This document shows, piece after piece, positions 17-18,781 of a DNA stretch of 20,000 bases; positions within the stretch are counted from its first letter, which is position 1; each line of letters starts with the position of its first letter. The stretch lies in IMG/VR virus record IMGVR_UViG_3300020151_001403; one strand, 5' to 3'. Source of the DNA: an uncultured virus (IMG/VR IMGVR_UViG_3300020151_001403) (Duplodnaviria > Heunggongvirae > Uroviricota > Caudoviricetes). Under the pieces are notes generated by a model, which worked only from the letters and a program-made list of their open reading frames with translations, ran no database searches and was not told the DNA's origin. The translations under genes and the position numbers were made by a program.

Positions 17-856
17 ATGAAAATTTTACAAAAAACAGGTGATTATAACATAATCATTAATCAAGAAACGGATTTTCAAATGAATTTAGGTTGGGAAGAA
101 AGTCTTGCTCAATTTGAAGAGGAGGTTTTAGAAGATATCATAAACCCAATCGATAATTATGAAACGGTGAGATATGTTCATTCACCATATAGTGGTATAA
201 CAGTAAACACAGGAGATACACAAACTGATATTTGGTACGATTTTAAATTTATCGATTCAACAAGCGGATACACTAACGGAACTGATTACACATTAGTAGG
301 AATTACCGTTGATGAGAACGCTAAAATGTTAAAACAATCGGCTGAAAGTTTTTTTAGGTTAGAATTTTTTAAAACACCACTAATATCAGGAACAACATAT
401 GAACCACCAACAAGGATTAATAGAAAATTGGCTTTCGCTAAGAATTTATCGTTACCAATAGGTGAGAAGTATTTTTACACTCCAATCAATGATAATATAC
501 ATGTTCCCGTTTTTATGGGTTCAAATTACAAAAATAAGGAAAATATGTATATTTTTTGGTTTCAAGATGACACCGTTTTGAATGATTCCGTTTTAAGTGG
601 AAACACTTTTTTTATGACTTCTAAATTTTTTAATGCTAAAGATGGTACAATAATGGATTTCACAACTACGGGTTTAACAATAGACCAAGAAGTTGTTGAG
701 TATAGGGATATGTACTATAAGGTTAATATAAATAAAAACGACTATTCTTATAAAATATATAGATACACAGGAGGAACAACTACAGAAACAGATAGAGTGG
801 GAAATATTAGTGGAGGTACTATAAATAATGCGATTAAGTTTTACGAAAAACGATAG
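17..856 (+). CDS. Hypothetical phage structural protein (~279 aa)
   Basis: The track starts the ORF at TTG 11. ATG 17 is preferred because it overlaps TAA 15-17 (TAATG) of a probable upstream gene ending ...KLDC*. First gene of the virion cluster in this window; carries 8 [ST]GxT motifs. Confidence 0.75.
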   Translation: MKILQKTGDYNIIINQETDFQMNLGWEESLAQFEEEVLEDIINPIDNYETVRYVHSPYSGITVNTGDTQTDIWYDFKFIDSTSGYTNGTDYTLVGITVDENAKMLKQSAESFFRLEFFKTPLISGTTYEPPTRINRKLAFAKNLSLPIGEKYFYTPINDNIHVPVFMGSNYKNKENMYIFWFQDDTVLNDSVLSGNTFFMTSKFFNAKDGTIMDFTTTGLTIDQEVVEYRDMYYKVNINKNDYSYKIYRYTGGTTTETDRVGNISGGTINNAIKFYEKR

Positions 857-870
857 TTATAGTAATATAG

Positions 871-3800
871 ATGAGAAAAAATAAGTACACCATTAGACGT
901 AATCAAATACCAAATGTTAGACTGGTTTCATTAACCGGACAGACATGGTATGACTCTAATGATAATCTTATTTCATGGTCTGGCAACACAGGTAATCTAC
1001 CAACTGGTTTCACACCAAGTAACGGATATGTGGTTTATAATATTACAGGTGGCACTATTAATGGTGGTTATTACAAATGGGGAGTACCAACGGGAAACAC
1101 ATGGAATGCTATAACTGGTACAACATCGTATATTAATTCACAAATTTATCCAACCAATCAACTACCACTTTATTTGGAGGCAACTTCTGATGAATATGGT
1201 TCAATGGTTGCTTTCGACGGTAACTTAGCTATCGAATCAAGTCAAACACAAATTAATGCCAACTTCACATATGAGGTGGATTGTAATACTGTAATCGTTA
1301 CCAATACAACAAATCTAAATAATGTTAAAGGTTTAAATGACATTACATTTACAGTAAATTGGGGTGATGGAACAACATCACCTATCGGCGTTTATGGAGT
1401 TTGTACAGGTGTTGATTGTCATAAGGCAACAAAAATATATAGTTTAAACGGGTCAAAAAATATTAAAGTAACATTAGATGCTCCTTGGGTAAATAATGAA
1501 TTAAGTAAGGCGGTTAATATTGATTGCCAAGTGTTCCCAACACCAACACCAACACCTACCGTTACACCTACATTATCTATTACCGCGACAAATACAAAAA
1601 CACCTACAGCAACACCAACGATTACACCAACAAATACAAATACACCAACTGTTACAAAAACGTCGACACCTACAACCACACCAACAAAGAGTATTACACC
1701 GACGGCAACTCCAACAACAACGATGGAGGCTACACCTACAATGACACCAAGTGTTACACCAACTGTATTGTGTGAATTTGATGTTAATATCGAAGTACTC
1801 GGAATTATTCCTGGTGAGGGATGTGATTTTATTTACACGGGTGGATATTCTCAAACACCATTAGAATATATAATTGATTTAGGTAACAATGCTGGAACAT
1901 TTAATTTCTATTATAGTGGTTTCACTATTAACGATAGTTTCGATGTTTATTATCCAGTTGACACTTTATTAACTACGACATCAATTGTAAGTCAATCAAA
2001 CATAACAACAGGTTCAACGGTATTCTATGCTGATGGTACATCAAATTATGTGAGAGTTGTTGTTAATCAAGTAGATTCAGGAGATATTGAAACTTTATGG
2101 GCGTTTATGGTAACATGTATTGTGCCTCTATCACCTACCCCAACACCAACACATACCGCTACACCAACGATTACTCCAACAAAAACAAGTACAGTTACAC
2201 CTACAAAAACACCTACAAAAACACCAACACCAACAAGGACGGCCACCCCTACACATACACCAACACCAACAACTACACCAAATTATGTGTGTGGTGTGCC
2301 AATCAATGGTAGGTACATATATAACACATCAGGAACAACTGAATATTTTGTTCATGGTATAACACAATCGGGAACTATTGCGTTTGAATATGAATCATAC
2401 GATTTGGGTGATAGTTTTGAATTATTTTATGAGAATGTATCGTTAGGTGCACCAATTTCGGGTACGGGAATCACATATTTTACACTTAACTATAATAGTG
2501 ATGATTTTGTAAAAGTTAGAGTTACTAATTTTGATTATGAAACCGTATATCGATTTACAGTATATTGTGTTAATGTACCGGGACCATCTAATACACCAAC
2601 CCCCACACCTACTAAAACTGTTACACCAACAGTTACACCGACAAACACAATCACACCAACAGTAACACCAACAAATACTATTACACCAACAAAAACAATT
2701 ACACCCACCCCAACCAAAACAAATACACAAACACCAACAGTTACTAAAACAAACACACCTACACCATCTATTACAAGAAGCGCTACTCCAACACCTACAA
2801 ATACAGGTACACCTGGTGTAACCCCAACACCGACTAAGACAACAACGCCAACTATTACACCAACTAAAACTGTAACACCAACGGTAACCCCAACAAATAC
2901 CGTAACACCAACAGTTACACCGACAAATACAATAACACCAACAAATACACCTACAAATACAATAACACCAACAGTTACACCAACAATTACACCTACCAAC
3001 ACAATAACACCAACAAATAGTGTTACACCAACCAACACGCAAACTCAAACCCAAACAGTTACACCAACAAATACAATTACGCCAACTAATACTATAACAC
3101 CTACCAATACAGTAACACCTACTAACACGCAAACTCAAACTCAAACAAATACACCTACTAATACAATAACACCAACCAACACTATAACCTCAACAGTTAC
3201 CGTAACACCAACTAATACTATTACACCAACAAATACTGGTACACCAACAAACACACCAACAAATACGCCTACAAATACTGGTACACCAACAAACACACCA
3301 ACAAATACCTCCACACAAACACCAACTCAGACTGAGAATTTTGTACCATCACAAACTCCAACAAATACCGTAACACCAACTAACACAATTACACCAACAA
3401 ATACTGTAACACCAACAGTTACCGTAACACCAACTAATACTATTACACCAACAGTTACACCAACAAATACAATTACGCCAACTAATACTATAACACCTAC
3501 GACCACTAAAACAGCAACACCAACACCGACGCCAACAAATCCTTGTGGACCATATAATTTAGATGTTTCATTATTATCAACTGATTGTTCATATAGTAGC
3601 GGTGACCCTAATGCACTATATTTGAATGTATTCACAGTAGGTAGTTATCAAGTAAGATTGGTCGACACTTTAGGTATCAATACGACAGCATGGCAGACGG
3701 ACAATAATTTCTTTGACGGTATACCTAATGGTACATATTATGCTCAAGTTAGAAGTACCGCAGCAAATCAGTGTACCGCAAATAGTAACGAATTCGAATT

Positions 3801-4641
3801 AGATTGTTTTGGAGAATTTATTATTACGAATGTTACGTTTGACTGTGATTTAGGTACGGTTTCAATATCAGTTACGGGAGGAACACCAAATTATAGTTAC
3901 AGTATTAATGGTGGTGTCACATATAGTGCACCAACAGGAAGTACTACATATACTACAACATTTACAGGTGATACTATAAATGTGTGGGTTAAGGATTCAA
4001 CAAATAATGTACAAAGATGGTATACAATTTATTGTAATGTAACGACAACATTTATACCAATTTATTTAGACCAAGGTGCGTCTGGACACATCTTAGAACC
4101 TGATAATACACAAAGAACAAGTGAATTTAGTGTTAAAAAGGCTAAAAATCAAACTCACTCTTTAACTGGTGTTACCAATGGTAATACCACATTCCACGGA
4201 TGGTCATATGGTAATAGTAGAAATAGTCAATTAATTACTGCGCAAAATAACTACACGCACACATTCGAAAGAGATGTTAGGGTTTATGCTTTATTCAAAA
4301 ATTTGAGTGCGTATACTGAGAACTTCTGTTTTACATTAACAACTTTAGGTTATGTTTTAACATGTGAAGAAGAAACCACATTCTGTAGTAATTGTAGTGT
4401 AACCGAACAAGTTTTCTTTAAACCAGTCGATTACATAAATGCGAAGGGAGACTATGGTAAGATTGTAAATTGGTACAAAGATGAAGCATTTACCACACCG
4501 GCAGATAACGGTTACTATAGACTACCATCACCAACTAATAAAAATAACGATAAAGAACTATTTATGTTAAGTAATGGTGTACCAACTTCAAAAGGAATTT
4601 GTGGTGGATGTACACCGGGTAACACACCACTTAGTTGTTAA
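871..4641 (+). CDS. Large virion adhesin/tail-associated protein (1256 aa): PKD-like domain, two beta-sandwich modules, three Pro/Thr linkers, SprB-like and InlB B-repeat-like domains, Cys-rich C-terminus
   Basis: PKD signature ANFTY...TNT...NWGDG (1258-1530). SprB-like GTVSISVTGGTPNYSYSINGG and GIPNGTYYAQVR (3545-4040). B-repeat-like LTG....TFHGWS...YTHTF...VYALF (4045-4302). PT repeats visible in the sequence. Confidence 0.75.
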   Translation: MRKNKYTIRRNQIPNVRLVSLTGQTWYDSNDNLISWSGNTGNLPTGFTPSNGYVVYNITGGTINGGYYKWGVPTGNTWNAITGTTSYINSQIYPTNQLPLYLEATSDEYGSMVAFDGNLAIESSQTQINANFTYEVDCNTVIVTNTTNLNNVKGLNDITFTVNWGDGTTSPIGVYGVCTGVDCHKATKIYSLNGSKNIKVTLDAPWVNNELSKAVNIDCQVFPTPTPTPTVTPTLSITATNTKTPTATPTITPTNTNTPTVTKTSTPTTTPTKSITPTATPTTTMEATPTMTPSVTPTVLCEFDVNIEVLGIIPGEGCDFIYTGGYSQTPLEYIIDLGNNAGTFNFYYSGFTINDSFDVYYPVDTLLTTTSIVSQSNITTGSTVFYADGTSNYVRVVVNQVDSGDIETLWAFMVTCIVPLSPTPTPTHTATPTITPTKTSTVTPTKTPTKTPTPTRTATPTHTPTPTTTPNYVCGVPINGRYIYNTSGTTEYFVHGITQSGTIAFEYESYDLGDSFELFYENVSLGAPISGTGITYFTLNYNSDDFVKVRVTNFDYETVYRFTVYCVNVPGPSNTPTPTPTKTVTPTVTPTNTITPTVTPTNTITPTKTITPTPTKTNTQTPTVTKTNTPTPSITRSATPTPTNTGTPGVTPTPTKTTTPTITPTKTVTPTVTPTNTVTPTVTPTNTITPTNTPTNTITPTVTPTITPTNTITPTNSVTPTNTQTQTQTVTPTNTITPTNTITPTNTVTPTNTQTQTQTNTPTNTITPTNTITSTVTVTPTNTITPTNTGTPTNTPTNTPTNTGTPTNTPTNTSTQTPTQTENFVPSQTPTNTVTPTNTITPTNTVTPTVTVTPTNTITPTVTPTNTITPTNTITPTTTKTATPTPTPTNPCGPYNLDVSLLSTDCSYSSGDPNALYLNVFTVGSYQVRLVDTLGINTTAWQTDNNFFDGIPNGTYYAQVRSTAANQCTANSNEFELDCFGEFIITNVTFDCDLGTVSISVTGGTPNYSYSINGGVTYSAPTGSTTYTTTFTGDTINVWVKDSTNNVQRWYTIYCNVTTTFIPIYLDQGASGHILEPDNTQRTSEFSVKKAKNQTHSLTGVTNGNTTFHGWSYGNSRNSQLITAQNNYTHTFERDVRVYALFKNLSAYTENFCFTLTTLGYVLTCEEETTFCSNCSVTEQVFFKPVDYINAKGDYGKIVNWYKDEAFTTPADNGYYRLPSPTNKNNDKELFMLSNGVPTSKGICGGCTPGNTPLSC
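1537..1764 (+). repeat. Pro/Thr-rich coding repeat 1 (linker)
   Basis: ACA-CCA-ACA-rich stretch encoding PTPTPT/TVTP/TITP units. Confidence 0.9.
2125..2280 (+). repeat. Pro/Thr-rich coding repeat 2 (linker)
   Basis: Encodes PLSPTPTPTHTATPTITPTKT...TTTP. Confidence 0.9.
2578..3543 (+). repeat. Pro/Thr-rich coding repeat 3 (~320 aa mucin-like stalk; [16 protein letters not shown] units)
   Basis: Degenerate 12- and 18-nt units. Higher-order duplications with a 90-nt period (TQTQTQT at about 3031 and 3121) and a 42-nt period (TNTGTPTNTP at about 3229 and 3271). Confidence 0.95.
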
Positions 4642-4651
4642 AAAATAATAT

Positions 4652-7600
4652 ATGCCTTTAAGTAACACATATTCGGGTTCATTTAACATAACAGGGTTTA
4701 CAAAAAATAAACCTGATTACATAGTTACGGATAGTAGCTCAACGGGCAAAAAGTTTGCTACGGATACTATTGTTTTTAGTGGCGGTACCACTAATCACTC
4801 AAGTGTAAGATTCGATATTACATATACGGGAGATGCTGATGTTGCAATGGTTAGTTTTGCGTTAGATAAAGGAAACCAATTATCCTTTAGTCTTAATGAA
4901 CAAGGGCCATATGTACCATTTTATGTTGCTCATCCTATATATGGACCAAATCAAATATCACATACCGGACAAGGTATTGAATTAAGTAGTGGTATTAAAA
5001 AAAGTGTTTATATTATTTACAATGCGAACCAAGAAAGTGTTACCGAAAATGTATTAATTTATATGTCGGTTGGATTAACAAACGGTAAAACGCCAACAAA
5101 TAATCACAACTATACAATAGAATTTAATTGCCCAAGTCCGGTTTATACATATAATGTTGGTGTTCATGTTTATTCACCATATGATTCAATTAACACCCCA
5201 AAATTAACCACAACATTAGTATCGTTAAAAGAAATTACCACATGGACCGAAATGGGACCATTAGGTGCAAATATAACAAGAGTATATCATGATAAATTAA
5301 TGGTATTACCTGCTTATCCTTATTATTATGGTTATAATAATAAGGTTTATAAAGTTGGCGTACCATTTAGTAGGTCATTTGGTCTTTTATATCAATACAA
5401 ACTTAGGATTTCACCACTTATTCGTGAAGTGTTAGGTAATCCAGACCAAATAACTGAAAATGTAATGGGACCAATGGATTGGACAGGTGTTTTTGGTTTT
5501 ACCGAACCAGGTCAGTTTCCCGCGTGTGTGTTTCCCGTAATGGACAGAGGTATTATAAAACAAATAACCGATAAAGTTAAAATACCACAACCACAAAAAT
5601 ATGAATATTATTTAGGATTTGACTATACAAATAAACAAAAATCAAACGATGATTATTTTGTTGAATACTCATTTAAAGAAAAAAAATTCTATCCAATCAC
5701 AGGTTTAAGACATGCGTTAAATAGATTATTAAATGGATACGTTAGAGGTGTTGATATTGAAAATTCTCCAGAAATTATTAAAACTGACTTTTGGGGTGGT
5801 TTATTAGATTTTGGTAAAGATGTATTTGGTGTTGTACCTTTTGTTGCCGGTTGGTTGGGAGATTTTCTTTACAATATTTTTGGATTAAATATCGATTTAT
5901 CACAACTTTTTAATTGGATTACAGGCCCATTACAACAAGTAATGACAAAAATTACTGCATATGTTGGACAAACGTTCATAACATCGGCAACAGTATTTAT
6001 AGAGACATTTTTAATTCCACTTTATTTATTTTACGTTGGGGTTAAATTTTTAATTTTTATTTATGACTATATAATACCTTCAGATTATACCATAGAAGAA
6101 CCTTGTCGACAGTTAATAAGATTTAAAACAACAGGACCTTATATTGAAACGGGACAAACTATTATACAAAATTATTCGTACTTAGATTACACCTTTTATT
6201 CAATTAATAATGAGGTTACTTTAGTTACCAATAAAACCAGAACAATGAACGGTTATTATTGTGACGGAGCGTATTTTTATCAGCAATCAGGTAATGTTGT
6301 TACAACTAAAGAATTATCCTCAACAACTGGTCTTATTAAATATGATAAAGATTTTAACCCTATTTTGGGATTTGATAAATCTATAACTCCCGATAGTCCA
6401 ACATTTATACAAAATGGATTATCATTATTGTTTTTACCATACACATCTGGTGTACCTATAAATGACCCATTTGATTTTTCCGGGTTTGATTTTTATTTCA
6501 ATTTCCCCATATCAGGCTCAACAACTCCCGATATTGGTGGTGAAATGGAGGAAACTCAATTAAATGTTGATTTATATATACCTCCCGGAACTTCAATAAG
6601 TTTTAATAGTCAAGAAGAGGCAGACGGAATTGCTCAAGGTTTATATGATGGTATGGTATCGGCAATAACAGGTACCACTGATGGTGATTATAACTATTCA
6701 TCACCAATTAGTGTTAATGACATTGGTATTGTGACATCATATTTTACACATGAAATAAAAATTGAAAATGAACCCAAAATTTTAGGTTTATTTTATAATA
6801 ATACCGATAATCAAAACCTTACAATTGGTAAAAACGTATTTTATGATATAACAGGAAGATATAAAGTTTTAAATGGTTTTTATTCCACAACTGGAGATAC
6901 CTCATATAGATTATTTTATAAAATTAATGATGGCCAATTAACTGACATCTATACAATGCAAACTTCAGGGTCAACCATTGTAAGTGGGGTGACAAGTGGA
7001 GACACTTTATCGGTGGTTACAAGTAATTTGAATTATACAAGCGACTGGTATTTCTTTGACGCTAATTATAACAATATTTACAATTTAACTAACGATTATA
7101 AAAATAAAAAAGTTTTTAATCCAAATACTTTGTATAATGAAGCATTCATGAAAAGAGGATATGTTTCATCAGGTTACACCGATTTAAATATATATGATAG
7201 TAACATTGGACCTGTTGGTTCAATAACTGAAGGTGAAACTGGTACGTATTTAATTTTATCACCTTGGAATCATGGTGAAACATTCTATTACTACAGAGGT
7301 GAGAATGTGACTGTTGATATTGAAGAGATTTGTACATTACAATCAACAGTAGTTGACCCATTATATGGTTTCTATATTGTTGGTAGAGATGATAATGGAT
7401 TCCTTTCATCTTTACATAATAATGTTGAAATGACCATTAAAGTATACGTTGATGCTGTACTTGCTCAAACATATACAGGTATAACAAGTTCATTATCAGA
7501 AGCAAAAACATATATTCCATATACTGGTATTAGTTTGACAGATAATGTCACGCTAATTGAAATTTATTCATTTGACACACCAAACCCATATAATAAAATT

Positions 7601-10501
7601 TATTATAGTGGTGGTACATTTATTGGGTGTATTAACCCATCCCCAACGCCAACAAATACAGTTACGCCAACTAAAACAAATACACCAACCCCAACACTTA
7701 CCCCAACCAACACAATTACGCCAACAAATACGGTAACCCCAACCAATACCATAACACCTACGCAAACACAGACACCAACAAATACTATTACTCCTACGGT
7801 AACAGAAACCCCAACAGTTACACCTACAGTTACCATTACGCCAACAAATACAGAAACACCAACAAATACTCCAACACAAACGCCAACAACTACTAAAACA
7901 TTAACTCCAACACCTACAGAAACACCTACAAACACTCCTACAGAAACACCTACAAATACGCCCACAGAAACGCCAACACAAACACCAACACCCACAGAAA
8001 CGCCAACACAAACACCAACAACTACTAAAACATTAACGCCAACACCTACAGAAACACCTACAAATACGCCCACAGAAACGCCAACACAAACACCAACACA
8101 AACACCAACAACTACTAAAACATTAACGCCAACACCTACACAAACTCAAACACCAACACCATCACCATACCCACCTAATGGTATATCATTATCGAGTAAT
8201 TCAATACCTGAGAATAGTTCGACTAACTATGTTATTGGAACATTCTCATCACAAACCGCTAGTGCGATTAGTGAGACGTATACATATACATTAGTTGCAG
8301 GAGCGGGTAGTGGTGATAATGGTAGTTTTAATATTTCAGGAACACAGTTAAGAAGTTCTGAAGTTTACAATTATGAAGCCAAATCATCGTACTCAATAAG
8401 AGTTCGTTCAACCAACTCACTTGGACAATATTACGAAACAACATTTACCATTAACATTACTAATGTTAATGAAACACCTGCTTCAATCTCATTAACTAAT
8501 AACAGTATCAACGAGAATTTAGGTGGTAATGTACTCGTTGGATATTTCTCAACAACTGACCCTGATGCGGGTAACACATTTACATACACATTAGTGGCTG
8601 GTAATCATAGTGATGATAATGGGGCATTTAGTATTTCAGGAAACGAATTACGTAGTATTAACAATCTAAATTATGAAAGTGATAATGAGTTTTGGATAAG
8701 AATTCGTTCAACAGACCAAGGTGGTTTATATGTAGAGGCTGAATTCACAATTTATGTTAACGATGTTAATGAATCCCCAACGGACATTACTTTAAGTAGT
8801 GGTTCTCAAAACGAAAATACATCTACTAACACAACAATCGGAACCTTCTCGACAAGTGACCCAGATGCGGGTAATACGTTTACTTATACATTAGTGGCGG
8901 GAACTGGTGATGCGGATAATAGTAGTTTCAATATTTCAGGAAATGCACTTAGAAATTCAATAGTTTTTAACTACGAGTCTAAATCATCATACTTAATTAG
9001 AATTCGTTCTACGGACCAAGGTGGTTTATATTTTGAAAAACAATTTACAATTACAGTAAATAATGTTAATGAAACACCAACAGATATTAGTTTAAGTAGT
9101 AGTTCACAAAATGAAAACACGTCAACTAATACAACAATTGGAACGTTCTCAACAAGTGACCCAGATGCTGGTAACACATTTACTTATACGTTAGTTGCGG
9201 GGACTGGTAGTGGAGATAATGGTAGCTTCAATATTTCAGGAAGCTCACTTAGAAATTCTGTAGTTTTTGATTACGAAACTAAATCATCATACTCAATTAG
9301 AGTACGTTCAACTGACCAAGGTGGATTATACACTGAAAAAGAATTTACAATTAGTGTTAATAATGTTGCAGAACCAACATATGCAATCACATCATCAGCA
9401 TATACAGTTGCTGAAGGAGATACAATAACATTGACCGTAAATACTACAGATATTGGAAATGGAACGTCACTTGGTTGGTATGTTGGTTATAACGGAACAA
9501 CATCATCTGCTGATTTCTCAAGTGCAACAAGTGGAAATGTTACAATTAATAGTAATACGGGTACATTTACATTAACAATTTCATCTGACGGATTATCAGA
9601 AGGTAGTGAATCATTCTATGTGGTATTAAATAGTACCGGTGGAAGTGCTGCTGCCACAACAACCGATATAACAATCTTATCATACCCAGTATTTACATTG
9701 GGAACTACTCAACCAAATTGTGTTACGAATGGTACGAGTACAACTGGTAAACTTTTAATTACAGGTGGAAACCCTGGTGACAAATATAGATATTGTGCAA
9801 GTGCAACATTCTCATGTACAAATAACGGTTGTTCATCACCTGACGGTACATTAGATGGTAGTGGAAATGCAACAATTGATGTGAATTATGTAAATGGTCA
9901 GGGTAATCCACAATATACTGTTAGGGTTTACAACGCTAGTCCAAATTGTAATACTAGTGTTTATACTGACCATACAGTAACTTTATACGAATCAATTTGT
10001 ATCACAGCAACAGTATCAAGTACAAATGCCGCATGTAATGGAGGTAACGGTTCTATAACTATTACCAATGTTACGGGTGGAAGTGGTGGAACATTCCAAA
10101 CTAAATTAAGTAGTGTTTACACCACATATACGAATTGGACATCATCAACAACATATAACGTACCTGCAGGTGCGTACACTGTTTACATTAAAGATAGTGC
10201 GGGTAAAGTTGAAGAATATTCTAGTACAATAACACAACCAAGTGCACTTGGAATATTTGCACAAAAAACCGCATTTGACCAAATTTATGCATCCGTTTCA
10301 GGTGGCGCTGCAGGTGGTAAAACATTTGAATTATATCAAGATTATAGTGCACCATACGAAGTTGGTGGAGGTAGTTTAGTTGACACATTAACTGATACAT
10401 CAAATGTAACATTTACTAGTGTTACCGCGGGTTATTATTATGTTAAAGCTATCGATAATAATGGTTGTACTGAAACAACTGCATATTTAATAACAATGTA
10501 A
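4652..10501 (+). CDS. Giant virion adhesin/tail-associated protein (1949 aa): hydrophobic helical segment, DUF5977-like motif, PT linker, 4 cadherin-like repeats, Calx-beta, SprB-like repeats
   Basis: Cadherin motifs xENxxx...DPDAG...[18 protein letters not shown]...NVNE. Calx-beta-like VAEGD...ADF...GNVT...[10 protein letters not shown] (9379-9685). SprB-like [13 protein letters not shown]...[10 protein letters not shown] and [14 protein letters not shown] (9995-10501). Confidence 0.8.
7637..8176 (+). repeat. Pro/Thr-rich coding repeat 4 (~180 aa; TNTITP, TETP and [11 protein letters not shown] units)
   Basis: acaactactaaaacattaac recurs at about 7886, 8018 and 8108. TETP/TQTP units are tandemly repeated. 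Confidence 0.95.
8171..9373 (+). repeat. Four tandem cadherin-like domain repeats (~300-nt period)
   Basis: Linkers NVNE/DVNE/NVNE/NVAE at 8462, 8762, 9062 and 9362, an exact 300-nt spacing. Repeats 3 and 4 are the most similar and differ largely at synonymous sites. Confidence 0.93.
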
Positions 10502-10515
10502 TATTTTATAAAAAC

Positions 10516-11127
10516 ATGCCAAAAAACATTAAAGTAAGTTTTAAAAATCCACCAAGAGGTCAAGATTCAACATATAGTATGACAATCTTAAATATGGACT
10601 CGACAGGTATTGTATTAGATAACGATAGTGTTAATCCAATCGATACCACAATGGTTAGTTCATCATTAGTACCGTGTAGTGGAAGTATTTTCGTATTGGA
10701 TTATAATCCAACATATACTTTAATTAAAAGTGGTTTAACATATAGTAATCTAATTACAGGTTCAATAGTTCCACAGGTAAAATGTTCTACAACTGATTTG
10801 TTTCTCGAAAGTGAGGGTGAATGTTCATTGGTTGAGAAAACTGATTTAGTTGGTATCAATGGTAATCCAAGAGTTGTGTTATCCGTTCAAAATGATGGTG
10901 GAACTACAGTTACGGGTGTGTTAAATCTAAATTTAGAATATGGTTTTGTGGAACCATATCCCACATCATCATTAATAATATCACAATCTGGTGTAGGTAT
11001 TAATTCAGGAAGTATTTATTTGGGTAGAGGAACATATTCTTTTGAAATGACCATTACGGGAAGTGGAGTACTTACAACAGGTCAAACAGCAACTATTACA
11101 TATATGAATTGTGATAATGTTATTTAA
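10516..11127 (+). CDS. Hypothetical protein (203 aa), probably a beta-rich virion accessory protein
   Basis: ORF closely follows the giant adhesin gene with an A-rich upstream region. S/T/G-rich with 4 Cys. No family recognised. Confidence 0.7.
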   Translation: MPKNIKVSFKNPPRGQDSTYSMTILNMDSTGIVLDNDSVNPIDTTMVSSSLVPCSGSIFVLDYNPTYTLIKSGLTYSNLITGSIVPQVKCSTTDLFLESEGECSLVEKTDLVGINGNPRVVLSVQNDGGTTVTGVLNLNLEYGFVEPYPTSSLIISQSGVGINSGSIYLGRGTYSFEMTITGSGVLTTGQTATITYMNCDNVI

Positions 11128-11183
11128 CAACCCATTTATTTAGATAAATTTAATCATTATATTATTACAAATATATTCTAAAG

Positions 11184-11191
11184 ATATTTAC
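11184..11191 (+). promoter_or_regulatory. Putative late promoter motif variant ATATTTAC
   Basis: Lies 18 nt upstream of ATG 11210 in the longest intergenic gap of the structural block. Resembles ATATTTAT at 11725, 15062 and 17711. Confidence 0.35.
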
Positions 11192-11209
11192 TAGAATAGA
11201 TAATTAATT

Positions 11210-11719
11210 ATGCTACTTGATTCCGGTTCACTTACATTTACAATTCCTTATTGGGTTCCTGAAACAGGTATTACTCAGGGTTATGAAAATGATTTAGATT
11301 ATGTTGCATATACAGGTAATACCTCATTTACAGGTATCACTTATTATAACGCAATTGGTTTAAGTAAAGTATCCGAGTTAAAAAAGTATGGTTCAAACGA
11401 ATATGTTGGTATAACAATTAACCCAAATAACACAACCGGTTACACAATTGATGGTGTCTATTATCAAGATAATCCTGAAGGTTTCACAATAATAACAGGT
11501 AATACGGTTGGTTTTACAAAAGAAGAGGTGATGTTTGAAGTTCTATCTCGTAATGAACATTTCTTAGGTTTTGTTGAAGAACCAACAATATATTCGGATG
11601 TTTATGTTGACCGCGGAAAACAAAGTGTAATGGAAATAAACTTAAGATTGGGTGAGGTAGATAATATGGGTGAATTAAGTAATTATGGAAATGGTTATTT
11701 TAAAGTAAAAAAACAATAA
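11210..11719 (+). CDS. Hypothetical phage structural protein (169 aa)
   Basis: Clean ORF; an in-frame TAA at 11201 fixes the start. The C-terminus EPTIYSDVYVDRGKQS...RLGEVDNMGELSNYGNGYF looks conserved. Carries 5 TGxT motifs. Confidence 0.75.
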   Translation: MLLDSGSLTFTIPYWVPETGITQGYENDLDYVAYTGNTSFTGITYYNAIGLSKVSELKKYGSNEYVGITINPNNTTGYTIDGVYYQDNPEGFTIITGNTVGFTKEEVMFEVLSRNEHFLGFVEEPTIYSDVYVDRGKQSVMEINLRLGEVDNMGELSNYGNGYFKVKKQ

Positions 11720-11724
11720 GATTT

Positions 11725-11737
11725 ATATTTATAAATA
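11725..11737 (+). promoter_or_regulatory. Putative phage late promoter ATATTTATA, within the palindrome TATTTATAAATA
   Basis: Sits in the 30-nt gap before ATG 11750. The same core occurs upstream of 15075 and of the 17721 RNA. Includes the T4-type late -10 box TATAAATA at 11730-11737. Confidence 0.55.
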
Positions 11738-11749
11738 AAAAGAAATAAT

Positions 11750-12670
11750 ATGGCCGTTGGAAGTTATGGAATAATAAGACCCTCAGATGTGTCGCCGGAT
11801 GATGTTGAAATATTTTATCATTACACATCGGGTAGGACATCTACCTCTGCGGTCACACTAAAAAAATTAATATCAACAGATGTGTTAACACCCGTTTATC
11901 ATAATTCTGATACAACTGATGATGCATCGGCACCAAACACCGAAATATTGGGTGGTTTATATAATTTAAAGCTAAGTGCTGATGATTTTTCAAATTTAGG
12001 GGTTTATACTTTACACATTAGACCAAAACAAATAAGAACATCGATTACCGATTGCGGGGTTTTAGCTTCATTACCATCTGTTAGAGGTTTAATTATTGAT
12101 ACGTCAAATGTACCGGCCGAAGATAGAAGTAAATTTACTCCACAAGGATTGGTGGGTTATAGGGTTGAATATATTAATACCACAAACAACCAAAAAATAC
12201 CTAACTTTTATCGAGTAGTTACATCATCATTTTATTGTTTACCAATAACATCTAATCTTACTAACTCAACAGATAAAGCAATTAGATATCAATATACCGA
12301 CCAATCGAGTAATTTAATATTTTTAACAATAACACCATCATCGGCACCATCTAGTCGACCAAATGTGATTCCTTTTATTGGTCAACCAGGACAAAAAATT
12401 ATATTAACAAATACATTTGTGAATCCAACAACTATCGAAGTTGATATGGTTGAACATGATGCAAGTACATTGGCACATGCATTGTACGGTAATCAAAGTA
12501 AAGCGATTGAACCGGGTATTTACACAATTTACGACCAAGATAATAACATCTATAAACAATATAACCTTTATGAAATTAAAGATGAATTTAGTGAAACACT
12601 ATATGAAATTCGTGAAGAAAGAACGGATGTTGATGAGACATTAAATTTAGATAACATTACCGACGTATAA
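11750..12670 (+). CDS. Hypothetical phage structural protein (306 aa), probable baseplate-region component
   Basis: Clean ORF coupled to the baseplate wedge-like gene by a TAATG overlap at 12668-12672. Function inferred from position only. Confidence 0.7.
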   Translation: MAVGSYGIIRPSDVSPDDVEIFYHYTSGRTSTSAVTLKKLISTDVLTPVYHNSDTTDDASAPNTEILGGLYNLKLSADDFSNLGVYTLHIRPKQIRTSITDCGVLASLPSVRGLIIDTSNVPAEDRSKFTPQGLVGYRVEYINTTNNQKIPNFYRVVTSSFYCLPITSNLTNSTDKAIRYQYTDQSSNLIFLTITPSSAPSSRPNVIPFIGQPGQKIILTNTFVNPTTIEVDMVEHDASTLAHALYGNQSKAIEPGIYTIYDQDNNIYKQYNLYEIKDEFSETLYEIREERTDVDETLNLDNITDV

Positions 12671-15048
12671 TGGCAAAATATACAAGAGTCCCAAGTGCTG
12701 CACGTAGTGGAGCTGATACATTTAGTGATAGTATAGTTGGTAGACAAATTACCGATGGTAGTAGTCAATTAACTAACACCACATTTGTAATTGATAGACT
12801 CGTACCTGATAAAGATAGTAAAACCTTTGTCACGAGCCCATTTTCCGATTTCATAACTTTAGATGACTTAAATCAGGAAATAGGTAAGGTTAACACAAAA
12901 GAAGAAAAAATTAAATTTAAGGGTGCAAGAGATAATGTGGCTAAATCATTATTCGGAGCATTAAAGCATAGATTGAATGTATCAATCAATCGAATAATAC
13001 AAAATTTTCCTGCATCATTTTACATTGACAACACAATCGTCGTAAGGTCTTCGGAAAATACATTAGAAAATATTAGTTATAGTGAAACTTTTCAAACAAC
13101 AGAATTTAATTTTCAAAAATCAATTATCTTTAATCCATTTGATATTGTTTTAAGTGAACCGTTAAGTAACACAATTGTAGAAACAGAAAATCACATTAGG
13201 AATTTTTATTCGTCATATACGAAGTATGTGTTGGATTATAATAATATTACATACGATATTATTAGTTATACCGAACCTAATACTAACGACACAATTACAT
13301 TAAAAGTTAATGGTAATCCATTTAGTGGTGCAACTGGTTCTACTGAAAGTTTTTTAATAAGACCAAATAATGGTGTAACTGAGGAATTCTTCAATAACTT
13401 AGACGATGTTGAAGAATTATTGTTAAATAGGGAAACCAATCCAAAATACACCGCGAGTTTTAAAGTACCGAGAGACAGTTTTGACCAAAGTAAAACAGAA
13501 ATAACTACGGTCGAAGTTAGTTGGCCAATGTCAAGAGATGGTTGGAATTTACAAATTATAGGTATGGATTACTTACAATTTTTGGATAAGGTAATTGTTT
13601 TGGCGGAAGAGATTGATGAATATAAATCAGATTTAGTTGTTAGATTTTTAACCGCACCGCAGTTATATGAATTTGATACCGAGGACAAAAAAGCCGAATC
13701 TATCTTCCAACTATATGGACAAAGTTTTGATAGTGTAAAAAAATACATCGATAACATAGCTTTCATGAGACATGTGAGTTATGATGGAATAAAAAATGTT
13801 CCTGATTTATTATTAAAAAATCTTTCAGAAAATTTAGGTTTAAGTACTATCAAACTTTTTGACGAAACAAGTTTTAGTGATACATTATACACTAGACAAG
13901 ATAGTACATATGGTGGAGTACCTATTGGTAAAAATTTAATTGAGTCTGAATATGAATTCTATAGAAGATTAGTAACCAATTTGGCACATCTTTATAAATC
14001 AAAAGGTACAAGAAAATCAATTGAGTTCTTTTTAAGATTTTTAGGCGCACCCGAACCAATGATTAAAATTGATGAATATGTGTATGATGTTACATCATTA
14101 ACAAATTCTCCAATATTGGAAGATGACTTATATGATTTAATTAATGGAATTAAAATTGATAATCTAATTAATGGATTTACGTCAACAGTTTTTACAGGTA
14201 CTACAGTTGGTGGTGATGACCATGGTGATACAATTACAGGTTATACTTTTAACTTGACATCTGTTACAGGAACCACAACCTTCACAAGAGACGAATATCC
14301 CGTAGATGAAAATGGATTACCAAGAAAGACAACAAAATTTGATGGTTCGGTATTCTTTCAAAAAGGTTCGGGATGGTATGACACTACTTTAGACCACAGG
14401 TCACCACTTACAATTGATTATGAAAATTCAGTTTTAACAGGTAGAACTAAATCAACAAAAACAATGAATTCACCATATACATATGGTGAGGATTATTTCA
14501 ATTATTTTAGAACTTTTCAAGGTTTAGATTATGGTTTTGATTTGAAATCAAGAATCGACAATAAAAAAGTTAGTTTTGCCGATAATCTAAATGAATCAAA
14601 ATTAATTCTTAATAGAAAAAATATTAATGTATTTTTATCACCGTCACAAACAATTGAGTATGACGTTTGGAGACAATCAAGAAATAATGAATTGACGTTT
14701 GGAACTTTAACACCACAAACAGGATTTACATTTGCCGAATATTTGAATACAGTAGTTAATCAAGTAATATCAAATAGTAATACCATAAAATACGAAAGAA
14801 ATTACTCGGATTTAAATGATGTACTTAATGATTATAAAACAAACACAGGATATACACCATACGATTTTACATCGGTAAACGAATATACACAGAAAATGTC
14901 ACCTTATTGGATTAAACTTATTGAACAGTTTATTCCGGCAACAACATTATGGACGGGTGGCGTTTCAATATCAAATAATAAGTTTAATAGGTCAAAATAC
15001 CGATACCTTAAACCAAATTACGGTAGCAATATGAACCAACAGTGCTAA
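12670..15048 (+). CDS. Baseplate wedge-like protein (P2 gpI / T4 gp7-like core), 792 aa
   Basis: VPDLLLKNLSENLGL...YRRLVTNLAHLYKSKGTRKSIEFFLRFLG resembles the gpI-type LxxLA..G...Y..KGT motif. The distal LIEQFIPA motif is typical of this family. Confidence 0.6.
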   Translation: MAKYTRVPSAARSGADTFSDSIVGRQITDGSSQLTNTTFVIDRLVPDKDSKTFVTSPFSDFITLDDLNQEIGKVNTKEEKIKFKGARDNVAKSLFGALKHRLNVSINRIIQNFPASFYIDNTIVVRSSENTLENISYSETFQTTEFNFQKSIIFNPFDIVLSEPLSNTIVETENHIRNFYSSYTKYVLDYNNITYDIISYTEPNTNDTITLKVNGNPFSGATGSTESFLIRPNNGVTEEFFNNLDDVEELLLNRETNPKYTASFKVPRDSFDQSKTEITTVEVSWPMSRDGWNLQIIGMDYLQFLDKVIVLAEEIDEYKSDLVVRFLTAPQLYEFDTEDKKAESIFQLYGQSFDSVKKYIDNIAFMRHVSYDGIKNVPDLLLKNLSENLGLSTIKLFDETSFSDTLYTRQDSTYGGVPIGKNLIESEYEFYRRLVTNLAHLYKSKGTRKSIEFFLRFLGAPEPMIKIDEYVYDVTSLTNSPILEDDLYDLINGIKIDNLINGFTSTVFTGTTVGGDDHGDTITGYTFNLTSVTGTTTFTRDEYPVDENGLPRKTTKFDGSVFFQKGSGWYDTTLDHRSPLTIDYENSVLTGRTKSTKTMNSPYTYGEDYFNYFRTFQGLDYGFDLKSRIDNKKVSFADNLNESKLILNRKNINVFLSPSQTIEYDVWRQSRNNELTFGTLTPQTGFTFAEYLNTVVNQVISNSNTIKYERNYSDLNDVLNDYKTNTGYTPYDFTSVNEYTQKMSPYWIKLIEQFIPATTLWTGGVSISNNKFNRSKYRYLKPNYGSNMNQQC

Positions 15049-15061
15049 TCAAATTAAAATA

Positions 15062-15070
15062 ATATTTATA
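15062..15070 (+). promoter_or_regulatory. Putative phage late promoter ATATTTATA
   Basis: Ends 4 nt before ATG 15075. Identical to the 9-mer at 11725-11733. Confidence 0.5.
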
Positions 15071-15074
15071 ATAT

Positions 15075-17030
15075 ATGAGTTTTTTAGATACAAATTATTC
15101 GGGAATAATAGCCACAAGGTTAACACAAAAAGGAAGAGAAAGTATTGCAAATGGTAATTTTGTTATCAGTCATTTTGCAGTTGGAGATTCGGAATATTCT
15201 TATGTAGACTCAACTACAGGTTCTTTAGTATTTTCACCTTTTGATGATTATGGTAATGTGAAATATCCAATACAATACACTTCAGGTAGCACACCTTATG
15301 GTGTTCCAATTTCAGAAATGACAACGGTTGAATGTTCAAATGTGATGGGCCCAGCTGGATTTGTGTCGGGTTCATTAGATGACAACTTTGTTATTAAAAC
15401 AACATATGAAACAATAAGTTCATTTACGGGATTAACAAATCAATTAAATGTAATTAGTGGTTCCAATTATGGTGTTGGTGATTTTGTGACATTAGTTTTA
15501 AATCTAAATAAGATAAACACTTCATTAGATACAATAACAGGAAATACAAATAGTCAAATATATAAAATAACAGCAACAGGGTCGACAACGGTAACTCTTG
15601 ATAGAACAACACAATTATTACCGAGTGGTAATGTAATACTAATTCCAAACGAAGAAGATTTTCAAAATCCATTAAAATTAGATACGACCGAACAACAAAA
15701 TTCTTGGTCGATGAATGTTGTGTGGGATAGTCAACCAATAGGTTTAGAAACATCTGATAGACCAATAACCGGATACACTAGTAATGTTTTTGTTGGTACA
15801 AAAGAATTTTTAGGTTATAAAACATCTGAAGGACAAACAATTAATACAGGAACTACAATCACAAATACCTTAGGTGAGACGGTTATTATTACCCCTGAAG
15901 AACAAAAATGTATAGCAATTTTACATTATTCTAAAAACGGAGATTCAATTGACCCGGATAGGTTTTTTAAATACGATGACCATATAAGTACCACAAATAC
16001 TGGATATACCCCACCAAATGAACCTTCTTTATCTGATGAAGAATATTTTTTGGTTCATATGCCATTTTTATTATATCATAGAAATACAGGAACAACTGTT
16101 GGTGCAACATTTAAAATGGGAACAGTTGACAAAGAGTACGTATCATCCAAAAACTCAAGATTTGTTTTAAATTACAGAGATTTACTTGATAAAAATAATT
16201 TTAGAGTCGGTAAGATATTCTATAATCAACAAGTAATTGTATTTGACGACGAGGAAATTGTTGCAACTTTAGATTATAAATCAAATAGAAGATTCACATT
16301 ACCCGCACCAAAGGTAAGTGCAATTATTACCAATGACCCTATCACTGATTTAACTACAGGTAAAACTATGTGGGTTTCCTACGTTCTTTCATATACGGGT
16401 GATACTAATACAAACAGTTTACCATGTAACTATTTTATGAAAGTTACGGGAGGCACAACACCACATAGTGTTTCTGTTAAATTTAATAGTGGAGAATTTC
16501 AATACTTACAAACTTCAACAGGAAATACTATTAATGGACAAATTGCAAATGAATTTTATTTGTTATACCAATTAACTGATAATGGATTGACCCCTGACCC
16601 CGATAGTTGGTTAAAGAAAAAATATACATTAACACTTAATGGTAATTCATTAATTGAGTCATCATCACTGGCGGGACAAACGTTTACTTTAAATCAAACA
16701 GACTACGCGGCGGGAACCCCATTTATATTATCAAATCATATGAATAAAAATTTTTCACTATCATCAGGACCTTATTTTGGTGATGAGCAACCATTTCCCG
16801 GTAGTATAAATGCGGTGAGAGCAACTGAAATACAACAATTGAGTTTTAAAGTTAATCTACCCGCAGATAAATTTACAACATCGGTTAACCCAACATATAC
16901 TTCGGGTAATTTAAAAATAACCGAAGTGGCTTTATTGAACTCCAATAAAGATACATTAATTATGGGTAAATTATCAGCACCATTGACAAGGTCAGGAGCA
17001 CAAGTTTTTATGGTACAGTTAGATTTCTAA
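15075..17030 (+). CDS. Baseplate/tail-fibre attachment-like structural protein (651 aa) with gpH N-terminal/DUF3751-like termini
   Basis: N-terminal RLTQKGRESIANGNFVISHFAVGD and C-terminal ITEVALLNSNKDTLIMGK resemble the LT..G....A.G...I...AVGD and IRE.GL....G.LIA motifs of P2 gpH-type proteins. Follows the gpI-like gene, as in P2. Confidence 0.55.
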   Translation: MSFLDTNYSGIIATRLTQKGRESIANGNFVISHFAVGDSEYSYVDSTTGSLVFSPFDDYGNVKYPIQYTSGSTPYGVPISEMTTVECSNVMGPAGFVSGSLDDNFVIKTTYETISSFTGLTNQLNVISGSNYGVGDFVTLVLNLNKINTSLDTITGNTNSQIYKITATGSTTVTLDRTTQLLPSGNVILIPNEEDFQNPLKLDTTEQQNSWSMNVVWDSQPIGLETSDRPITGYTSNVFVGTKEFLGYKTSEGQTINTGTTITNTLGETVIITPEEQKCIAILHYSKNGDSIDPDRFFKYDDHISTTNTGYTPPNEPSLSDEEYFLVHMPFLLYHRNTGTTVGATFKMGTVDKEYVSSKNSRFVLNYRDLLDKNNFRVGKIFYNQQVIVFDDEEIVATLDYKSNRRFTLPAPKVSAIITNDPITDLTTGKTMWVSYVLSYTGDTNTNSLPCNYFMKVTGGTTPHSVSVKFNSGEFQYLQTSTGNTINGQIANEFYLLYQLTDNGLTPDPDSWLKKKYTLTLNGNSLIESSSLAGQTFTLNQTDYAAGTPFILSNHMNKNFSLSSGPYFGDEQPFPGSINAVRATEIQQLSFKVNLPADKFTTSVNPTYTSGNLKITEVALLNSNKDTLIMGKLSAPLTRSGAQVFMVQLDF

Positions 17031-17069: not shown

Positions 17070-17684
17070 ATGAATAAAAAAATACTTGAGTCGGCTAAAA
17101 TTTTGGGATTAGACATCAGCACAAAGACCATAGGCTTTGCTCTATTTGATATTTCGGGTTCAAAATTATTGGAGTTAACACATTTTTCACCAAAAATTAA
17201 ACCACAACCCGAAGATAAAATTGAAGAATTAATTAAGAAGGCGGATGCGTTTAAAGCACACATTGAAAACTATAAAGGAATGGGAATTACTCGTGTCATT
17301 ATAGAAGAGCCACTCCTTCAATCTAACAACATTTATACAATCGGTACTTTGTTACGTTACAATACTTTAATTCTTAAAGTGTGTTACGATGCTTTAGGTG
17401 TGTTACCAACGTTTATCTCAACATATAACTCGAGAAAGTTTGCTTTCCCCGATTTAGTTGGTCCAAATGATAAGGGACGTAATGTTTTGTTTGGTGGTTA
17501 TCCAAAAGATATTGATAAGAAACATGTAATATGGGAACACGTTAATGAGGTTTGTCCTGACATTAATTGGTTGTACGGAAAAAACAACGCATTAAAGAAA
17601 GAAAACTACGACATGGCAGATGCTGCGTGTTGTGTGATAGGATATGTAAATATGATAAAAGAAATTGAAAAAAATACGAAGTAG
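17070..17684 (+). CDS. ruvC: RuvC-like Holliday junction resolvase (204 aa)
   Basis: RNase H-fold catalytic motifs ILGLDISTKTIG (D), VIIEEP (E) and YDMADA (DxxD). Confidence 0.85.
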   Translation: MNKKILESAKILGLDISTKTIGFALFDISGSKLLELTHFSPKIKPQPEDKIEELIKKADAFKAHIENYKGMGITRVIIEEPLLQSNNIYTIGTLLRYNTLILKVCYDALGVLPTFISTYNSRKFAFPDLVGPNDKGRNVLFGGYPKDIDKKHVIWEHVNEVCPDINWLYGKNNALKKENYDMADAACCVIGYVNMIKEIEKNTK

Positions 17685-17836: not shown

Positions 17837-18781
17837 ATGACTGACCAAAAAGTAGATTATTCACCCGTAATTGATATCCTTGAGGACATATTAGGTTCAC
17901 CTAAACTCCACAACGATTACAAAGGACAAATATCTTTTGATTGTCCTGTTTGTTCATTCGACATCAAAGAGCTTGACCATGGAGACGGTAAAGGGAATCT
18001 TGAAATCAACTACAAAGAAAGTGTTTTTAAATGTTGGTCATGTTCTGAAACCCATGGGACTCATGGTACGTTGTATAAGTTAATTAAACAACACGGTAAC
18101 CAAAAACTACTTAAAAAATATCTCATATTAAGACCCGATGAGGATGGTGAAGCACCAAAACGAGTTTATAAAAATGTAAAATTACCAAAGGAGTTTATCT
18201 TATTTAAAGACGCAAGTAGAGGGTTGCGGTTAACATCACAATTCAAACAAGCGTGGGCTTATATTAAGAAAAGAAATATTACAGATGAGATGTTAGAGAG
18301 ATATAACATTGGATTCTGTTACGAGGGTGACTTTGCAAATAGAATTATCATTCCATCTTACAATGAGGAAGGTTATTTAAATTATTTTATTGCAAGGTCA
18401 TACCTTTCATATACTAAATTGAAGTATAAAAATCCCGAGGTACAAAAGGAGATTATTATTTTCAATGAAAAATTAATTAATTGGAATGAAAAGATATACA
18501 TCGTTGAAGGTGCTTTCGATAGTATATTCATCCCCAACTCAATACCAATGTTGGGTAAATTTATGTCAGACCACCTTTTTTATAAGTTATACGATGATGC
18601 AAAGGGGGAACTTACTATTGTCTTGGACCCTGATGCGTGGAATGATGCTGAAAGACTTTATCATAGAATTAATTGTGGTAAGTTAATGGGTAGAGTAAAC
18701 ATCATTAAATTAGAGGGTGATAAGGACATTGCAGATTTGGCGGGTGATTTAAGTGAATACAAAGAAAGAAAATTAGACTAA
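17837..18781 (+). CDS. dnaG: DNA primase (DnaG/T4 gp61-type; Zn-binding and TOPRIM domains), 314 aa
   Basis: CPVC...CWSC zinc finger, RIIIP, FIARS and KYKNP motifs, TOPRIM IYIVEGAFD and LDPDA (DxD), KDIAD. Confidence 0.92.
   Translation: MTDQKVDYSPVIDILEDILGSPKLHNDYKGQISFDCPVCSFDIKELDHGDGKGNLEINYKESVFKCWSCSETHGTHGTLYKLIKQHGNQKLLKKYLILRPDEDGEAPKRVYKNVKLPKEFILFKDASRGLRLTSQFKQAWAYIKKRNITDEMLERYNIGFCYEGDFANRIIIPSYNEEGYLNYFIARSYLSYTKLKYKNPEVQKEIIIFNEKLINWNEKIYIVEGAFDSIFIPNSIPMLGKFMSDHLFYKLYDDAKGELTIVLDPDAWNDAERLYHRINCGKLMGRVNIIKLEGDKDIADLAGDLSEYKERKLD

Follow-up and report, generated by a model that had tools for sequence, protein, structure and literature searches.

The window analysed here is a stretch of 20,000 nucleotides from an uncultured member of the Caudoviricetes (IMG/VR record IMGVR_UViG_3300020151_001403), which carries, all on the + strand, a block of eight open reading frames (ORFs) at positions 17..17030 followed by replication genes. 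By direct count, the translated ORFs of the block contain 63 copies of the tetrapeptide [ST]-G-x-T (hereafter, the motif), against 16.0 ± 3.8 in whole-protein shuffles of the same eight sequences (maximum 31, n = 5000). The motif recurs in at least ten families without detectable homology within a large group of uncultured freshwater T4-like jumbo phages, referred to below as the clade. On the basis of sequence comparisons and predicted structures, it may well, though by no means certainly, constitute a tag read by a trans-acting, clade-specific factor, most simply and most probably an O-glycosyltransferase.

Gene content and motif distribution in the window

The block opens with an ORF of 279 amino acids (aa) at 17..856, which has no match in Pfam or PHROGs and holds 8 motifs where shuffles give 0.33 (P < 1/5000). 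It is followed by a fibre- or adhesin-like ORF of 1256 aa (871..4641; phrog_15511, E = 2e-28) with 14 motifs against 5.9, and by an ORF of 1949 aa (4652..10501) with cadherin repeats (PF00028, E = 1e-20) and a weaker excess of 13 against 6.5; these cadherin repeats and phrog_15511 were the only Pfam and PHROGs matches obtained in the block. Downstream lie ORFs of 203 aa (10516..11127; 2 motifs against 0.56, P = 0.11, not significant alone), 169 aa (11210..11719; 5 against 0.30), 306 aa (11750..12670; 1 against 0.30), 792 aa (12670..15048; 8 against 0.84) and 651 aa (15075..17030; 12 against 1.33), the last assigned as a tail/baseplate protein of a large uncharacterised family. Relative to the shuffles, the excess is strong in the five ORFs starting at 17, 871, 11210, 12670 and 15075, and absent from those starting at 10516 and 11750. 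The product of the latter is the most conserved protein in the block and may be an inner or buried component. An earlier note on this DNA had counted the motifs by hand (8, 14, 13, 2, 5, 1, 8 and 12), and these values were reproduced exactly, as was its observation that 8 of the 18 Gly residues of ORF 17-856 fall within a motif.

Within individual proteins, the distribution is uneven. Six of the 14 motifs of ORF 871 are found in aa 22-85, and all 14 lie outside its Pro/Thr linkers. Residues 1-995 of ORF 4652 contain 12 motifs against 1.49 expected, its cadherin repeats (aa ~1190-1650) none against 1.91, and its C-terminal part 1 against 1.60; the repeats, of cadherin type, number at least three, and the N-terminal third of the protein includes a strongly hydrophobic segment (aa ~400-480). 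In an alignment of 18 sequences of the 169-aa protein, all 5 motifs occupy the variable N-terminal 100 residues and none the conserved C-terminal 70. The linkers mentioned above consist of (Thr-Pro-Thr-x)n runs, hundreds of residues in total (window positions ~1530-3640 in ORF 871 and ~7630-8220 in ORF 4652), which make the GC skew strongly negative at 2-4 kb and 7-8 kb. Mucin-like linkers of this sort are a classic O-glycosylation substrate; TGxT avoids them.

Shuffling within blocks of 10, 20 and 40 residues gave 15.0, 13.9 and 13.8 motifs, respectively (maximum 29, 2000 shuffles each), and dipeptide-preserving shuffles 20.3 ± 3.9 (maximum 34, n = 1000). Because the (T-P-T-x)n linkers of ORFs 871 and 4652 inflate Thr content, they were masked in a further control, in which the remaining 4941 aa held 62 motifs against 9.7 expected, an excess of about sixfold. 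The local and dipeptide-preserving shuffles, together with the masking of linkers, rule out an artefact of composition or regional composition, and the enrichment claimed in the earlier note stands at 63 against 14-20. Codons within the motif follow overall codon use, Ser being drawn from both AGY and TCN families, and the three reverse frames contain 0, 0 and 2 motifs against 1.0, 0.9 and 2.1 expected. These results exclude a repeat or site at the DNA level and therefore support selection at the protein level, as had been proposed.

Beyond the block, Pfam and PHROGs identified a RuvC-like resolvase (17070-17684), a primase (17837-18781), an exonuclease (18783-19640) and an SbcD-like phosphoesterase truncated by the end of the window (19637-19999), none of which contains the motif. 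The statement that it is missing from replication proteins is correct for these 924 aa, but carries no information in the window, since the expectation is only 0.22.

A single, sharply defined tetrapeptide

Position 1 of the motif is enriched for T (7.6x) and S (4.8x), compared with 1.8x for N and 0.7x for D; position 2 accepts G exclusively; and position 4 favours T (6.4x) over S (0.54x). The x position shows background composition, with the exception that Pro does not occur. There is strong coupling between S/T before Gly and T at the second position beyond that Gly (62/63/37/226, odds ratio 6.0, P = 4e-13), and the excesses of the half-motifs G.T (101 against 54) and [ST]G (129 against 92) disappear once instances of the tetrapeptide are removed, so that both are parts of one tetrapeptide. 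Single-position variants all range between 0.65x and 1.23x in 41 motif-rich proteins of three relatives. Altered spacings ([ST]GT, [ST]G..T, [ST].GT and others) yielded 0.6-1.6x, the exceptions being [ST].G.T and [ST]..G.T at 2.5-2.8x, and substitution by beta-branched aliphatic residues ([VI]G.[VI], [VI]G.T, [ST]G.[VI]) gave 0.8-1.2x, with [VI]G.[VI] itself at 0.8x. Known sequons are not enriched in the block, neither the N-linked N-x(not P)-[ST] (89 against 107.9 ± 8.9) nor the Bacteroidota O-glycosylation sequon D-[ST]-[AILVMT] (30 against 22.3 ± 4.2, z = 1.8, local shuffles), from which the earlier note had rightly distinguished the motif.

Recurrence in virion genes across the clade

A 27.8-kb record of the same phage (G001) extends the locus upstream, where proteins of 1524 aa and 589 aa each carry 9 motifs (against 1.8 and 0.68), and a gp6-like wedge protein none against 0.49. 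The relative G002 is a 269-kb T4-like myovirus with 70% identity in the 651-aa protein and PHROG markers for sheath (phrog_23), tube, wedge (phrog_6, phrog_219 and phrog_261), major head protein (phrog_138) and terminase. The window itself contains none of the T4-type marker genes (sheath, tube, wedge, capsid, terminase), and its gene order matches that of G002 at 90-111 kb, directly downstream of the gp6-like and gp25-like wedge genes; the orthologue of the 279-aa ORF, of 397 aa, also lies there behind baseplate-wedge genes. Judged by this synteny, the block belongs to the structural genes of a T4-like phage with a contractile tail. To call its products virion proteins is fair on the strength of synteny and fold hints, not of proteomics. 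The claim that the motif saturates the virion proteins was nonetheless too strong, as the 306-aa ORF, the cadherin repeats of ORF 4652 (0 against 1.9) and the upstream wedge protein are without it.

For the 651-aa protein, 1051 homologues were found, the longest of their contigs measuring ~320 kb, and no match in a collection of cultured phages. All 40 aligned homologues contain 7-18 motifs where 0.8-2.2 are expected. Orthologues at the corresponding loci of relatives showed pooled counts of 348 against 33.3 for the 651-aa protein, 225 against 33.3 for the 792-aa protein (27 sequences), 107 against 12.2 for the 169-aa protein (17 sequences) and 7 against 1.6 for the 203-aa ORF (three sequences), with 11 against 5.7 for the 306-aa protein (19 sequences, identity 71-88%). 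The 58 distinct orthologues of RuvC, primase and exonuclease have no motif against 3.4 expected.

Whole records are likewise enriched: 168 against 76 in G002, 198 against 101 in G005, and 214 against 89 in G024, a complete genome of 360 kb. Genes at 0-220 kb of G024 contain 19 motifs against 24.2, compared with 188 against 58.5 in its virion block, and PHROG-annotated enzymes of G002 contain 10 against 6.7, compared with 44 against 13.5 in its virion proteins. These figures bear out the proposed confinement to virion genes; among the latter, the tube, hub, wedge and adaptor proteins of G002 are not enriched. In G024 (317411-326068, L185-L186), a 2885-aa fibre of 46-residue tandem units contains 75 motifs against 14.3. 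Each unit contains three TGxT-type motifs, one of them within S-L-T-G-H-T-H, which includes an H-x-H unit.

Virion proteins of three cultured T4-like phages served as controls. Counts were 9 against 7.0 in 20 proteins of RB51, plus 3 against 5.0 in a further five proteins of its long tail fibres, 2 against 5.6 in 12 proteins of Mel-JY01, and 9 against 4.4 in 11 proteins of S-PM2. A generic trait of beta-rich virion or fibre proteins is ruled out by this lack of enrichment.

The tail sheath allows the comparison to be made within one protein family. The three control sheaths have 0, 0 and 3 motifs, that of G002 has 12 against 1.69 expected, and the median over 120 close homologues of the latter is 9. 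More than 4000 contigs bear the sheath; in 150 representative sequences (32-70% identity), enrichment drops with distance from 4.1x to 2.4x and is patchy, with counts of 0-15. Residues 8-102 and 650-974 of the G002 sheath align to the termini of T4-type gp18 (C-terminus, E = 1e-30), and 11 of its 12 motifs fall within residues 121-604, a stretch that takes the place of the T4-type region separating the N- and C-terminal core. From the T4 structure, we take this region to be the outward-facing part of the sheath. None of the 120 sheaths carries a motif in the initial 10% or final 20% of its length. The enrichment is found both in the parts that cannot be aligned to the G002 sheath (161 against 49.2, 3.3x) and in the aligned parts (299 against 109). 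Overall, the motif appears to sit in variable outer parts of the virion and in predicted loops.

Independent gain and turnover of sites

BLAST detected no similarity among the motif-bearing proteins, and ten iterative searches with hidden Markov models (HMMs; three rounds, 1811 clade proteins) matched only the orthologues of each query, which confirms the earlier view that the proteins are unrelated and leaves a shared mobile domain without support. Sites also turn over between orthologues: 40 homologues of the 651-aa protein define 59 site groups, 3 of them present in at least 30 sequences, 17 in 10-29 and 39 in fewer than 10. At 24 recurrent sites, Gly is kept in 126 of 472 (27%) orthologous cells that lack the motif, a proportion in which misalignment of loops may inflate the apparent replacement, and its substitutes are S, N, T, D, L, A, V, E and P. 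A turn in which Gly is obligatory should conserve Gly at orthologous positions, and this was not observed.

These data bear on the hypothesis that the motif-rich regions derive from a single decoration domain or repeat, ancient and promiscuous, of which nothing but the key turn is still recognisable in sequence. Phage virion proteins do exchange decoration domains, and the motifs do cluster locally. We nevertheless regard such common descent as very improbable, given the failure of cross-family BLAST and HMM searches, the gain and loss of sites within families at residue-tolerant positions, and the differing structural contexts described below.

Glycosyltransferases and other candidate enzymes

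Relatives of the window are rich in glycosyltransferases and sugar-pathway genes. G002 codes for at least 15 glycosyltransferases, with 9 GT2 matches plus GT4, GT7 and GT60-like members, and G005 has 6 GT2 matches. A 35-kb sugar island of G002 combines GT2, GT4 and two GT7-like genes with a DegT aminotransferase, a UDP-glucose dehydrogenase, a carbamoyltransferase and an APS-kinase-like gene. The same island includes a 128-aa ORF (L052:8682-9068) that matches part of the major capsid protein gp23 (PF07068, E = 5.5e-16), far from the full-length capsid gene.

The two GT7-like genes of G002 are adjacent (L053:10881-13672; Glyco_transf_7N/7C), and one is fused to a lectin-like Laminin_G_3 domain; GT7-like genes are rare in prokaryotic viruses, and the GT7-lectin protein had no match in the phage collection. 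The pair is conserved in G005, and neither of the complete genomes G024 and G025 has GT7C. Outside the island, G002 codes for a GT60-like protein of the GlcNAc-related family PF11397 (E = 2.6e-70). This gene was found in 1 of 22 records, with no counterpart in G005, in 17 further clade fragments or, by BLASTP, in the complete G024, all of which are motif-enriched. GT60-like and GT7-like enzymes are therefore ruled out as the reader of the motif, as neither is clade-wide.

Ten of the 15 glycosyltransferases of G002 recur in G005 and only 3 in the complete G024. Two enzymes are core to the clade: a GT-B of 408 aa, found in 9 of 11 records, and a GT2 of 260 aa, found in 8 of 11, both present in the two complete genomes and in none of the three control genomes. 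The 408-aa enzyme belongs to a virus-only family. A search for close homologues of it in cultured phages gave matches of 25-33% identity only, from phi92-like coliphages and a 735-kb phage that is itself uncultured. In G026 (C1:53603-54817) its gene contains one in-frame TGA.

Another set of candidates lies directly upstream of a collagen-like tail fibre of G002, where seven paralogous 2OG-Fe(II) oxygenases (phrog_61, PF13640) and two tryptophan-halogenase-like genes are located (L054:951-10445 and L062:8259-9387), all of which could be protein-modifying enzymes. They give some substance to the hypothesis that the motif is read by something other than a glycosyltransferase, such as a 2OG-Fe(II) oxygenase, a kinase or a cross-linking enzyme, or that a decoration protein, a metal or a host-surface ligand docks on it or binds to it. 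The evidence for a clade-specific, sharp and convergent tag would serve such a reader equally, the APS-kinase-like gene could be added to its candidates, and the repeats of the G024 fibre have the motif overlapping H-x-H units, of the kind that binds iron in the fibre tips of T4. We consider this alternative improbable, as none of these candidates has a specific link to the motif, a hydroxyl residue (S/T) at position 1 with a strict T at position 4 is most simply an O-linked acceptor or its recognition, and 63 sites in 17 kb are many for a docking site.

Structural context and the nature of the motif

Structural contexts were taken from an AlphaFold2 model of the 651-aa protein with a pLDDT of 80.6; a model of the 169-aa protein (pLDDT 37.6) was unusable. 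Foldseek returned no global match for the former (best E = 3e-4, probability 0.10), and its residues ~107-195 showed a domain-level likeness to phage tail, baseplate and tailspike proteins (Z 7-8); against 9h4p_BD, the model reached Z 10.2 over 111 residues. In the model, 11 of the 12 Gly of the motif are predicted to be in coil, compared with 25 of 36 other Gly, in agreement with the expected location in loops. The 12 sites comprise five strand-strand connections, two strand starts, three long loops, one helix cap and one short helix.

The main rival, to be taken seriously though somewhat less likely than a tag, is that phi-T-G-x-T-phi, phi being a hydrophobic residue, is a strand connection or cap favoured by a Thr-rich lineage in its beta-rich virion proteins and its fibre repeats, and that nothing reads it. 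Two-residue beta-hairpin turns with Gly (type II' or I') are universal, and the motif resembles them in having Gly in a short loop, beta-branched flanks and hydrophobic residues one step out. Several observations fit this rival and count against a tag. Across 476 non-redundant clade sites, position -1 is hydrophobic in 53% (1.7x), with charged residues depleted, and the first residue past the motif in 48% (1.5x), the next often being Asn; the exclusion of Pro at x points the same way. Five of the 12 modelled sites join two strands, as a structural loop would, and two more begin a strand. Several sites of the 651-aa protein are conserved in 26-34 of 40 homologues, and a TGYT site is invariant in the 169-aa family. 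In the G024 fibre, the motifs belong to a strict 46-residue structural repeat with a period of 15/17/14 residues, and in the window spacings of 13-17 residues are in excess (9 against 3.2 ± 1.7). The presumably exposed cadherin repeats of ORF 4652, being motif-free, also speak against a tag.

The enzymatic evidence adds to these difficulties. No glycosyltransferase of the clade is tied to the motif, and none is encoded in the 27.8 kb of sequence available for the phage of the window. The association of the GT-B and GT2 enzymes with motif-enriched genomes is confounded by clade membership, as it is for many other genes, and the 408-aa GT-B enzyme could act on DNA instead, the glucosyltransferases of T4 being DNA-modifying enzymes.

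In contrast, a structural preference does not explain why the motif is not seen in homologous or analogous proteins of RB51, Mel-JY01 and S-PM2, fibres included, or why the turn-compatible variants [ST]NGT, [VI]G.[VI], [ST]G.[VI], NG.T and DG.T are unenriched. Unlike generic Gly hairpin turns, the motif shows a clade-specific excess, no enrichment of its N/D-G and V/I variants, background composition at x, and a Gly that is often replaced, being retained in just 27% of the orthologous non-motif cells. The modelled contexts moreover differ in kind (hairpins, long loops, a helix cap and a helix), and non-homologous insertions of the sheath are equally enriched. A tag is favoured because a universal structural preference fails on four properties taken together, namely restriction to one clade, occurrence in non-homologous proteins, definition at the level of single residues, and positions that tolerate other residues.

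The tag would then be the short linear sequence phi-[S/T]-G-x-T-phi, written repeatedly and independently into variable, presumably exposed outer parts of the virion: insertions of the sheath, proteins of the baseplate periphery, and fibres. Its putative reader would be a phage-encoded cytoplasmic glycosyltransferase that attaches a sugar by O-linkage to either of the two hydroxyl residues, resulting in a sugar-coated tail. We advance tentatively the more specific proposal that [S/T]-G-x-T is the acceptor sequon of a phage-encoded, cytoplasmic O-glycosylation that coats loop tips of already folded outer tail, sheath and fibre proteins clade-wide. The modification sequon suggested in the earlier note is thus borne out as regards protein-level selection, unrelated carriers, predicted loops, confinement to virion genes and relatives rich in glycosyltransferases, but not as regards an enzyme tied to the motif.

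Comparison with known systems

In mycobacteriophages, phage-encoded glycosyltransferases are reported to decorate the phage's own structural proteins, with glycans at the C-termini of capsid and tail-tube subunits (PMC12619734). The likeness to the present case would lie in phage glycosyltransferases, which are encoded here by the relatives G002 and G005. The difference is that the candidate sites are internal tetrapeptides in sheath, baseplate-periphery and fibre proteins of T4-like phages, known so far from sequence alone. The same publication describes freshwater jumbo phages termed 'moraphage', possibly of the same lineage as this clade, with four core glycosyltransferase groups (PMC12619734).

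A second parallel is provided by SgtA of Clostridioides difficile, a soluble GT-A enzyme with four TPR repeats that adds O-GlcNAc to Thr of G-P-T triplets in the collagen-like spore glycoprotein BclA3, and that also glycosylates Ser peptides (PMC7157674). T-G-x-T corresponds to a reading frame of two such G-x-T triplets, and G002 has a collagen-like fibre (1042 aa, 20 TGxT) of N-T-G-x-T-G-P-Q units. However, position 4 of the motif excludes Ser whereas SgtA takes Ser peptides; the window has no collagen-like protein; and the collagen-like orthologue of G005 has 1 motif against 3.5 expected. A GT2 enzyme bearing TPR repeats was not found by Pfam in G002, G005, G018, G006 and G004 (records 24-81% complete): the 367-aa and 599-aa GT2 proteins of G002 lack TPR at E <= 1, TPR_11 was found in none of the five records, and TPR_8 gave one sub-threshold match in G005 that is not on a glycosyltransferase. 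An SgtA-like GT2-TPR reader was therefore not found in these five clade records. The motif is a member of neither the mycobacteriophage nor the SgtA/BclA3 system.

The general O-glycosylation of Bacteroidota, with its sequon D-[ST]-[AILVMT], acts on exported proteins. It shares with the motif a sequon of three to four residues, a hydroxyl acceptor, a hydrophobic neighbour and many unrelated target proteins, and differs in that its own sequon is unenriched here and its targets are exported, whereas virions are assembled in the cytoplasm. Finally, protists possess GT60 polypeptide GlcNAc-transferases, and mucin-type O-glycosylation targets Thr/Pro-rich stretches. The PF11397 protein and the two GT7-like enzymes of G002, together with the T-P-T-x linkers of ORFs 871 and 4652, recall these systems, from which the clade differs in that the GT60-like gene is not clade-wide; an enzyme of this type would account for glycosylation of the linkers, not for the TGxT tag.

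Significance

Literature searches on Thr-Gly-x-Thr-type motifs returned none described as a virion or glycosylation motif among the matches listed, and those on phage virion or tail glycosylation no such sequon among theirs, in each case as far as the retrieved records describe their content. To our knowledge, phage virion glycosylation has been chemically documented only for a few mycobacteriophages, without a sequon. Even if purely structural, a clade-specific tetrapeptide gained independently in at least ten unrelated families is unusual and needs explanation.

If the proposed sequon is real, it would be the first to be defined for phage virion glycosylation, and it would be shared by a very large clade, with thousands of homologues of the sheath and of the 651-aa protein in metagenomes, so that virion glycosylation could be predicted across metagenomes from sequence alone. 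It would also help to tell those of the many 'auxiliary' phage glycosyltransferases whose substrates are proteins from those that modify DNA or host polysaccharide. The gain and loss of sites would then resemble an arms race with hosts or grazers of the glycan-shield kind, and the motif would provide a handle on surface change in abundant lake phages, with consequences for adsorption, stability and escape from recognition.

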